Positions 2,056 to 50,347 of a DNA stretch of 64,000 nucleotides are shown one piece after another. Numbering within the stretch: position 1 is the first letter of the stretch; every line of letters begins with the position of its first letter. The DNA is from Escherichia coli (GTDB lineage: Bacteria; Pseudomonadota; Gammaproteobacteria; Enterobacterales; Enterobacteriaceae): NCBI RefSeq assembly GCF_003790525.1, contig NZ_CP033635.1. The stretch is one strand, 5' to 3'. Below the pieces are notes generated by a model. That model saw only the letters and a program-made list of their open reading frames with translations. It was not told the DNA's origin and did no database searches. Position numbers and translations under genes: made by a program.

Positions 2056-4946
<2,891 letters not shown>

Positions 4947-6364: not shown

Positions 6365-6892
6365 ATGAACCGTTTCATCATTGCTGACGCGAGTAAATGT
6401 ATTGGTTGCTGTACCTGTGAAGTGGCGTGCGTGGTTTCTCATCAGGAGAATCAGGACTGTGCATCGCTGACCCCGGAAACTTTTTTACCGCGAATCCATG
6501 TCATTAAAGGTGTGAACATTTCTACGGCAACAGTCTGCCGTCAGTGTGAAGATGCACCGTGTGCTAACGTCTGCCCGAATGGTGCTATCAGCCGTGATAA
6601 AGGGTTTGTTCATGTGATGCAGGAACGTTGCATTGGTTGCAAAACCTGCGTTGTGGCTTGCCCGTATGGCGCGATGGAAGTGGTGGTACGTCCGGTGATT
6701 CGCAACAGCGGCGCGGGGCTGAATGTACGGGCTGACAAAGCCGAAGCCAATAAATGCGACCTCTGTAACCATCGTGAAGACGGCCCGGCGTGTATGGCGG
6801 CTTGCCCGACCCATGCGCTGATTTGTGTCGATCGTAATAAACTTGAACAACTGAGCGCAGAAAAACGTCGCCGTACGGCGCTGATGTTCTAA
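6365..6892 (+). CDS. hydN: Electron-transport ferredoxin-like protein HydN (4Fe-4S clusters)
   Basis: 175 aa from ATG 6365 ([15 protein letters not shown]...), multiple CxxCxxCxxxCP motifs, GGAG Shine-Dalgarno; the track ORF starts at an upstream TTG. Confidence 0.85.
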
Positions 6893-20064: not shown

Positions 20065-20538
20065 ATGACTGACAGTGAACTGATGCAGTTAAGCGAACAG
20101 GTTGGGCAGGCGCTGAAAGCCCGTGGCGCAACCGTAACAACTGCTGAGTCTTGTACCGGTGGTTGGGTAGCGAAAGTGATTACCGATATTGCCGGTAGCT
20201 CCGCCTGGTTTGAACGCGGATTTGTCACCTACAGTAACGAAGCCAAAGCGCAAATGATCGGCGTACGTGAAGAGACGCTGGCGCAGCATGGCGCGGTGAG
20301 TGAACCCGTCGTGGTGGAAATGGCGATAGGCGCACTGAAAGCGGCTCGTGCTGATTATGCCGTGTCTATTAGTGGTATCGCCGGGCCGGATGGCGGCAGT
20401 GAAGAGAAGCCTGTCGGCACCGTCTGGTTTGCTTTTGCCACCGCCCGCGGCGAAGGTATTACCCGCCGGGAATGCTTCAGCGGTGACCGTGATGCGGTGC
20501 GTCGTCAGGCTACTGCGTATGCATTGCAGACCTTGTGA
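20065..20538 (+). CDS. pncC: NMN amidohydrolase PncC (CinA-like); ends at a TGA where K-12 is recalled to read on for 8 more codons
   Basis: ATG 20065 with AGAGG Shine-Dalgarno. Reading through the TGA at 20536 gives WQQFLQNT then stop, which would restore the recalled 165-aa length. Confidence 0.8.
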   Translation: MTDSELMQLSEQVGQALKARGATVTTAESCTGGWVAKVITDIAGSSAWFERGFVTYSNEAKAQMIGVREETLAQHGAVSEPVVVEMAIGALKAARADYAVSISGIAGPDGGSEEKPVGTVWFAFATARGEGITRRECFSGDRDAVRRQATAYALQTL

Positions 20539-20558
20539 CAACAATTTCTACAAAACAC

Positions 20559-21703
<1,145 letters not shown>

Positions 21704-25859: not shown

Positions 25860-25862
25860 TTT

Positions 25863-25939
25863 GCATCCGTAGCTCAGCTGGATAGAGTACTCGGCTACGA
25901 ACCGAGCGGTCGGAGGTTCGAATCCTCCCGGATGCACCA
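25863..25939 (+). tRNA. argV: tRNA-Arg (anticodon ACG), copy 1
   Basis: GCATCCGTAGCTCAGCTGGATAGAGTACTCGGCTACGAACCGAGCGGTCGGAGGTTCGAATCCTCCCGGATGCACCA, 77 nt. Confidence 0.9.
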
Positions 25940-26003
25940 TCTCTTACTTGATACGGCTTTAGTAGCGGTATCAAAAAATCTGCAGTAAAGTAAGTTTCCC
26001 GAT

Positions 26004-26080
26004 GCATCCGTAGCTCAGCTGGATAGAGTACTCGGCTACGAACCGAGCGGTCGGAGGTTCGAATCCTCCCGGATGCACCA
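26004..26080 (+). tRNA. argY: tRNA-Arg (ACG), copy 2
   Basis: Identical 77-nt tRNA-Arg sequence. Confidence 0.9.
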
Positions 26081-26142
26081 TCTCTTACTTGATATAGCTT
26101 TAGTGGCGGTATCAATATCAGCAGTAAAATAAATTTCCCGAT

Positions 26143-26219
26143 GCATCCGTAGCTCAGCTGGATAGAGTACTCGGCTACGAACCGAGCGGTCGGAGGTTCG
26201 AATCCTCCCGGATGCACCA
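26143..26219 (+). tRNA. argZ: tRNA-Arg (ACG), copy 3
   Basis: Identical 77-nt tRNA-Arg sequence. Confidence 0.9.
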
Positions 26220-26282
26220 TCTCTTACTTGATATGGCTTTAGTAGCGGTATCAATATCAGCAATAAAATAAATTTTCCCGAT

Positions 26283-26359
26283 GCATCCGTAGCTCAGCTG
26301 GATAGAGTACTCGGCTACGAACCGAGCGGTCGGAGGTTCGAATCCTCCCGGATGCACCA
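26283..26359 (+). tRNA. argQ: tRNA-Arg (ACG), copy 4
   Basis: Identical 77-nt tRNA-Arg sequence; its 3' flank differs from copies 1-3. Confidence 0.9.
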
Positions 26360-26473
26360 TCTTCTCCGTAATCTTCAGCAATGAAGATATCGAAGAGGTA
26401 GCGGTATTAACCGCAGGCACCAGGGAGGATAACGCCGGCCAGCAACGGCCCGAAGGGCGAACGCCAGTGAGTC

Positions 26474-49684: not shown

Positions 49685-50347
49685 TTAATTGCCAGCCATC
49701 GCCTGCTGGATAATGGGAATTGGCGTCAGTAAATGCTGGCGCATTAACTCACTGGCGCGCGCGGTATCTCGCGCCAGTACCGCCGCAGTCAGGGTCTGGT
49801 GCTGATCGTGTTTATCCTCCAGCATCTCCACCGAAAGCACTGTTCGCCGCAGCCAGATAAATCGATAGCGCGCCGCCAGATCAAACAACCGTTCACGCAT
49901 TTGCAGCAAATAGTGAGAACCACAGCCCGCCACAATTGCAGTATGAAACGCCTGATGACGAAGATCCCACTCATCAAGCATTTTCTCACTGGCGTCACAG
50001 GCCTCCAGCTTACTGAGCAGATGCGCTTTTGCGAGAACGTCTGCCTCCCATTCATCGCCACCGCGGGCAATCGCCAGACTGACCAGCATCGCTTCCATAT
50101 TGGCGCGGGCGTCGAAAATATCGAGCAGCTCCTGCTCTGACATAGACGCCACCCGATACCCTTTTTGATTCACCACCGTGACCAGCCGTTCCGCCACCAG
50201 TTGCGAAAGAGCTTCCCGTAACGGCCCAACGCCAAGTGCATAACGCGATGTCAGCAAACTCATCCGTAATTTTTCATCCGGTTGAAAATTACCGCGAATA
50301 ATATCGTTCTTCAGCCAGCGATAGCCATCCAGAGACGTAATGGTCAT
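49685..50347 (-). CDS. csiR: GntR-family repressor CsiR (GabC)
   Basis: 220 aa from the internal ATG (MTITSLDGYRWLKNDIIRGNF...), matching recalled CsiR. Confidence 0.85.
   Translation of the reverse strand: MTITSLDGYRWLKNDIIRGNFQPDEKLRMSLLTSRYALGVGPLREALSQLVAERLVTVVNQKGYRVASMSEQELLDIFDARANMEAMLVSLAIARGGDEWEADVLAKAHLLSKLEACDASEKMLDEWDLRHQAFHTAIVAGCGSHYLLQMRERLFDLAARYRFIWLRRTVLSVEMLEDKHDQHQTLTAAVLARDTARASELMRQHLLTPIPIIQQAMAGN

Follow-up and report, generated by a model that had tools for sequence, protein, structure and literature searches.

A probable private nonsense substitution in pncC, next to the recA promoter of an Escherichia coli chromosome

Introduction

The pncC gene of Escherichia coli encodes an NMN deamidase, is well characterised and non-essential (dispensable) in this organism, and lies directly upstream of recA. 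In the window analysed here (the whole stretch of 64,000 nucleotides from an E. coli chromosome), its reading frame closes at a TGA that the first-pass annotation had attributed to a TGG to TGA change or to a sequencing error, with the loss of eight C-terminal residues next to the recA promoter. The locus thus raises the questions of whether the shortened gene is real, how widespread and how old it is, what the truncated protein might still be able to do, and whether a base change so near to recA affects that gene as well.

Results

A stop codon in place of Trp158

The locus belongs to the E. coli chromosome, with the gene order mltB-pncC-recA-recX-alaS, and the gene is annotated as pncC in strains SMS-3-5, XDL and K-12; a position between mltB and recA corresponds to the enterobacterial genomic context. 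In the window, the truncated pncC (an NMN deamidase/CinA-domain coding sequence) occupies 20065..20538 on the + strand and consists of 157 codons and an opal stop, and its translation bears out both the start at the ATG of 20065 and the end at the TGA of 20536-20538 that had been read from the sequence. Beyond this TGA (W/*), the frame runs on through QQFLQNT to a further TGA at 20560-20562, which makes 165 aa in total, as had been claimed. These seven codons, which are now untranslated, and the ancestral TGA (together 20539..20562, + strand) have the same sequence as in K-12 and SMS-3-5. The length of 165 aa that had been given for the K-12 protein is also right, since the K-12 gene (b2700) measures 498 nt (165 aa) and the published description of E. 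coli PncC gives 165 residues, with W158 as one of four tryptophans (PMC8231969); the SMS-3-5 gene has the same size.

Alignment with the reference genomes traces the early stop to a single base. The window carries A at 20538 (+ strand), while G is present in every genome compared; K-12, SMS-3-5 and XDL all have TGG (Trp158) where the window has TGA, and the K-12 protein, rather than ending at this point, continues to 165 aa. A three-way alignment with K-12 and SMS-3-5 set the window apart from SMS-3-5 at just one of 621 nt, namely 20538 (A vs G), a G:C>A:T transition. One base change has thus converted the Trp158 codon of pncC into a stop codon, and the last eight amino acids are lost, as had been supposed. 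Since the difference amounts to a single base, its rarity, and not chance, is the relevant question.

Rarity and age of the substitution

The A at 20538 was found in none of the 5,419 complete RefSeq E. coli genomes searched, a set that does not include the window's own source assembly (66-nt query centred on the site; all genomes at most 98.5% identical). An allele-specific DNA pattern likewise had no match in 100,044 species-representative genomes (GTDB, one per species) and none in JGI metagenome contigs. Twenty-four genomes are at least 99% identical to the window over 24 kb, with top bit scores that correspond to one mismatch, and the A is absent from all of these near-identical genomes. 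When the entire 64 kb was compared with SMS-3-5 and XDL, three differences proved to be private to the window (6410, 20538 and an A-run at 61182-61186). Within the clade, each genome shows a background divergence of ~1-2 SNPs in 64 kb, and the relatives have private SNPs of their own in the same stretch (SMS-3-5 at 4672, in ascF; XDL at 50054, in csiR). As the window is otherwise identical to its relatives across tens of kilobases, the pncC change is very recent and postdates their split.

The private difference at 6410 lies in hydN (6365-6892, + strand), where a C>T change relative to SMS-3-5, XDL and K-12 replaces Arg16 of HydN by Cys within the first iron-sulphur motif, CxxCxxCxxxC (CIGCRTC > CIGCCTC). 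At least 1000 contigs, named for Shigella/Enterobacteriaceae, encode exactly this Cys16 protein, which is a recurrent allele without novelty. At 61182-61186, in a ypjCB/DUF5507 pseudogene, the window has A5 where SMS-3-5 and XDL have A6, a difference that could be real slippage or a homopolymer assembly error. Elsewhere in the window (~25860-26360), four tandem tRNA-Arg genes follow a tRNA-Ser gene downstream of csrA; in BLAST they appear as 140-nt repeats with ~96% self-similarity, and they represent the normal E. coli arrangement.

A real substitution or a wrong base

The A5/A6 run bears on the trust that can be placed in single-base differences of this assembly. The alternative that survives best is, indeed, one of sequencing or assembly error, in which TGG and an intact 165-aa PncC are present in the strain itself and the consensus of the deposited assembly was miscalled as A at 20538. 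Such an error would fit an allele that is a singleton against 5,419 complete genomes and absent from both large collections scanned; the A5 vs A6 run in the same window, a classic assembly artefact, points the same way, as does the absence of the source assembly from the complete RefSeq genomes searched, though its protein received a WP accession. Nevertheless, the difference at 20538 is a substitution and not a homopolymer indel, and it stands in a non-repetitive context with no Dam/Dcm motif, unlike typical long-read errors. Furthermore, the 157-aa protein appears under two GenBank accessions (probably those of the window's own strain), and the rest of the 64-kb stretch is clean against the closest relatives. 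A base-call error is less likely than a real private opal substitution; we hold it to be unlikely, though worth keeping in mind.

Other copies of the truncated protein

The exact 157-aa protein has been deposited as WP_121831914.1, AYW29305.1 and RLY44036.1 (two GenBank records and one RefSeq WP record), the first of which bears the NCBI name 'nicotinamide-nucleotide amidase [Escherichia coli]' and a length of 157 aa. A look-up of the exact protein returned "44 contigs", the longest of 5,539,489 bp. As this longest contig also encodes the Cys16 form of HydN found in the window, the deposited protein is probably derived from the window's strain or clone, and the contig itself is probably the chromosome from which the window was taken. 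HydN R16C was rejected as a link between the NCBI records, the Cys16 protein being common elsewhere and the look-up listing no accessions for this sequence.

Ten of the 44 contigs were read, and the TGA allele was present in none of them. In eight (L006-L013) the gene is cut at the contig end, the contig finishing within codon 158 without a stop codon. One is an adapter chimera (L005:10465-10487, a Logan contig), in which codon 157 of pncC is joined to an Illumina adapter (CTTGTG then AGATCGGAAGAGC) with a spurious TGA, and one has a different, TAG, allele. The idea that the "44 contigs" are independent occurrences of the TGA was therefore rejected. As the database copies are mostly contig-end fragments plus an adapter chimera, counts of an identical truncated protein are not evidence for the allele; the NCBI-annotated records are the sole remaining candidates for the window's allele elsewhere.

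The TAG allele (L014:3680-3700, on a metagenome scaffold of ENA ERZ28663712) is an independent pncC stop that arose by TGG>TAG at codon 158. It carries a further change, CAA>TAA at codon 160, so that two G:C>A:T changes fall in a 6-nt stretch upstream of recA, and it was found in none of 5,399 complete genomes. Apart from these stops, a 74-aa ORF is present in an alternative frame of the window (20348-20572, + strand). In two cluster representatives (P0136 and P0140), which resemble E. coli PncC, the sequence passes into an alternative frame and ends in ...NNFYKTLDTV, the frame of this 74-aa ORF; a frameshift in other assemblies, by error or by mutation, is the probable cause.

The recA promoter and the base at -55

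The sigma-70 promoter of recA (20559..20586, + strand; 11/12 matches in the scan) comprises a -35 element TTGATA at 20559-20564, a 16-nt spacer and a -10 element TATAAT at 20581-20586. The natural pncC stop at 20560-20562 falls inside TTGATA, so that the overlap with the -35 region described in the first-pass annotation is real. The SOS/LexA box TACTGTATGAGCATACAGTA (20563-20582, + strand) is embedded in the promoter, and its core at 20565-20580 has the form CTGT-N8-ACAG, a motif which we take, from established recA knowledge, to be the LexA box. The recA coding sequence follows at 20642..21703 (+ strand; from the ORF list, with the annotation taken from SMS-3-5, L001 2103-3164) and is the same as in the relatives. 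From the core promoter and LexA box through the 5' UTR to the end of the coding sequence, recA is identical to the references in the 64-kb comparison.

With the transcription start placed by inference 7 nt past the -10 element (20593), the variant base lies at ~-55 of recA, 21 nt upstream of the -35 element. As the pncC stop has moved 24 nt upstream, the untranslated gap between pncC and recA has grown from 79 to 103 nt, and the scan found no terminator-like site between the two genes. An extension of 24 nt is too little for polarity on recA to be expected. Little effect of the change at 20538 on recA is expected.

UP elements act in the zone of -40 to -60 (PMC6501063), within which 20538 falls, and a regulatory explanation can be built on this position. 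On this view, the G>A at ~-55 would have raised the A/T content of the distal UP zone (-57 to -47) and have been selected for altering basal or induced recA expression, with the loss in PncC being tolerated. In its adaptive form, the change would tune recA via a UP-like A/T tract, Trp read-through of the new stop would keep the cost to PncC small, and the L014 allele, with its two G:C>A:T changes at about -56 and -51 in another background, would provide a second example. Against this, nothing relevant on a UP element at the recA promoter was found in the literature, and where the sequence resembles the UP consensus so poorly, a lone G>A is expected to have little effect. Spontaneous changes are most often of the G:C>A:T kind, so that chance would be expected to move a sequence towards an A/T-rich consensus. 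Both alleles have failed to spread among complete genomes (0/5,419 for the TGA and 0/5,399 for the TAG of L014). A regulatory origin is hence very improbable, and the adaptive scenario, with recA tuned at little cost to PncC, is just as hard to credit.

What the truncated protein keeps

The window's PncC is identical to K-12 PncC over residues 1-157. Its match to the Pfam CinA profile (PF02464; cut-off 23.5) extends over residues 8-157 and profile positions 3-151 of 155, with the loss of two positions, and scores 197.5 bits vs 199.7 for the full-length protein. By this domain profile, the truncated PncC is assigned to the PncC/CinA-domain NMN deamidase family. Mutagenesis identified S29, Y56, K61 and R142 of E. 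coli PncC as essential, and W158 is not in the active site (PMC8231969); the equivalents of the essential residues in AtCinA of A. tumefaciens are likewise essential (PMC5384747). An alignment of 86 diverse family members shows no variation at any of the four, and the window's protein keeps them all.

What the truncated protein loses

In an AlphaFold2 model (pLDDT 96.1), residues 142-162 form one C-terminal helix. The stop removes the last five residues of this amphipathic helix (about one and a half turns) together with a three-residue tail; the helix, which has hydrophobic residues at 154, 157, 158 and 161, is therefore incomplete in the window's PncC and ends at L157. Among 95 stand-alone family representatives (clusters at 50% identity), a large hydrophobic residue is found at position 150 in 80%, at 154 in 100%, at 157 in 95%, at 158 in 61% and at 161 in 93%, so that the lost W158 and F161 are family-conserved hydrophobic positions of a buried type. 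Only 3 of the 95 end at or before position 159, and in the Enterobacteriaceae a PncC length of 165 aa is essentially fixed.

E. coli PncC proteins of 161-164 aa were considered as precedents for a shorter C-terminus and rejected, as they have internal deletions and keep the LWQQFLQNT end. The view that the tail is dispensable, drawn from the Pfam scores and from W158 being unconserved in PDB homologues, was revised in light of the conservation at 158 and 161 and of the few early ends. The conserved hydrophobic residues at 158/161, along with the fixed length of 165 aa, suggest that the tail is not free to go and that the effect of its loss could exceed a mild one. On the sequence and the structural model, PncC(1-157) probably folds and keeps its catalytic site, and would be neutral to mildly hypomorphic and somewhat less stable.

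Leakiness of the new stop

The new pncC stop stands in the context TGA-C. Termination at UGA with C at +4 is inefficient, and tRNA-Trp misreads UGA in E. coli (PMC5289835); in K-12 reporters, UGA read-through amounts to ~2% at 37 C and ~4% at 25 C, with Trp-tRNA(Trp) competing with RF2 (PMC10570021). As the ancestral codon was Trp, each event of Trp read-through would restore the wild-type 165-aa PncC, with termination at the ancestral TGA. The RF2 of K-12 is unusually weak, so that a lower rate of read-through is likely in a non-K-12 strain. Extrapolated from the K-12 reporters, up to a few percent of wild-type PncC might be made in this way.

Programmed recoding would make the full-length protein the intended product, with the TGA either read as selenocysteine or passed by the ribosome at high efficiency. 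It could draw on the leaky UGA-C and on the ancestral Trp restored by read-through, but it is effectively refuted: even at E<=10, neither SECIS nor any other Rfam family matches 20300-20750, an in-frame UGA occurs in 0/5,419 E. coli genomes, no recoding signal could have evolved at codon 158 given that the relatives (K-12, SMS-3-5 and XDL) all have TGG, and the downstream sequence is identical to that of genomes without need for such a signal, which leaves leakiness instead.

Discussion

Taken as a whole, the locus is likely to harbour a real, recent and private nonsense SNP, with a neutral to mildly weakened PncC, a low level of Trp read-through and an intact recA. A very recent, lineage-private G:C>A:T change at 20538 would have turned the Trp158 codon from TGG into an opal stop, and the main product would be PncC(1-157), in which the catalytic apparatus and nearly the whole CinA domain are kept. 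Deprived of the helix end and of W158 and F161, this product would still be predicted to fold and dimerise and is probably less stable. The resulting NMN deamidase, whose gene E. coli can spare, would be neutral to mildly hypomorphic, and it would be supplemented by 165-aa wild-type PncC from perhaps ~2-4% of the ribosomes (the K-12 reporter values; probably fewer with a fully active RF2).

The type of event, a nonsense SNP, is already known, and NCBI already has records of the allele. Its wider importance is little; at most, the strain may have a slightly impaired NMN-recycling enzyme. At this locus, a single stretch of DNA serves both as the 3' end of pncC and as the upstream part of the recA promoter. 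In annotation, the 157-aa PncC is best labelled a truncated allele.

Comparison with known systems

K-12 PncC (YgaD, b2700; an NMN amidohydrolase of the pyridine nucleotide cycle, PF02464) shares with the window's protein residues 1-157, the synteny, the domain and the essential residues, but possesses residues 158-165 (WQQFLQNT), which the window's protein lacks due to TGG>TGA. The deposited WP_121831914.1, compared as a protein sequence, has no protein-level difference from the window's PncC. The L014 allele resembles that of the window in having its stop at codon 158 and the same 157-aa product, while it differs in the use of TAG and not TGA, in its second change, in a different E. coli background and in 13 other pncC differences. 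Natural leaky UGA-C stops (for example, the autoregulatory UGA-C of prfB, and stops subject to tRNA-Trp read-through) likewise consist of an opal codon followed by C, with insertion of Trp. Unlike the UGA-C of prfB, however, the stop in the window is accidental, has neither an upstream Shine-Dalgarno-like stimulator nor a slippery CUU, and is not shared by the relatives.
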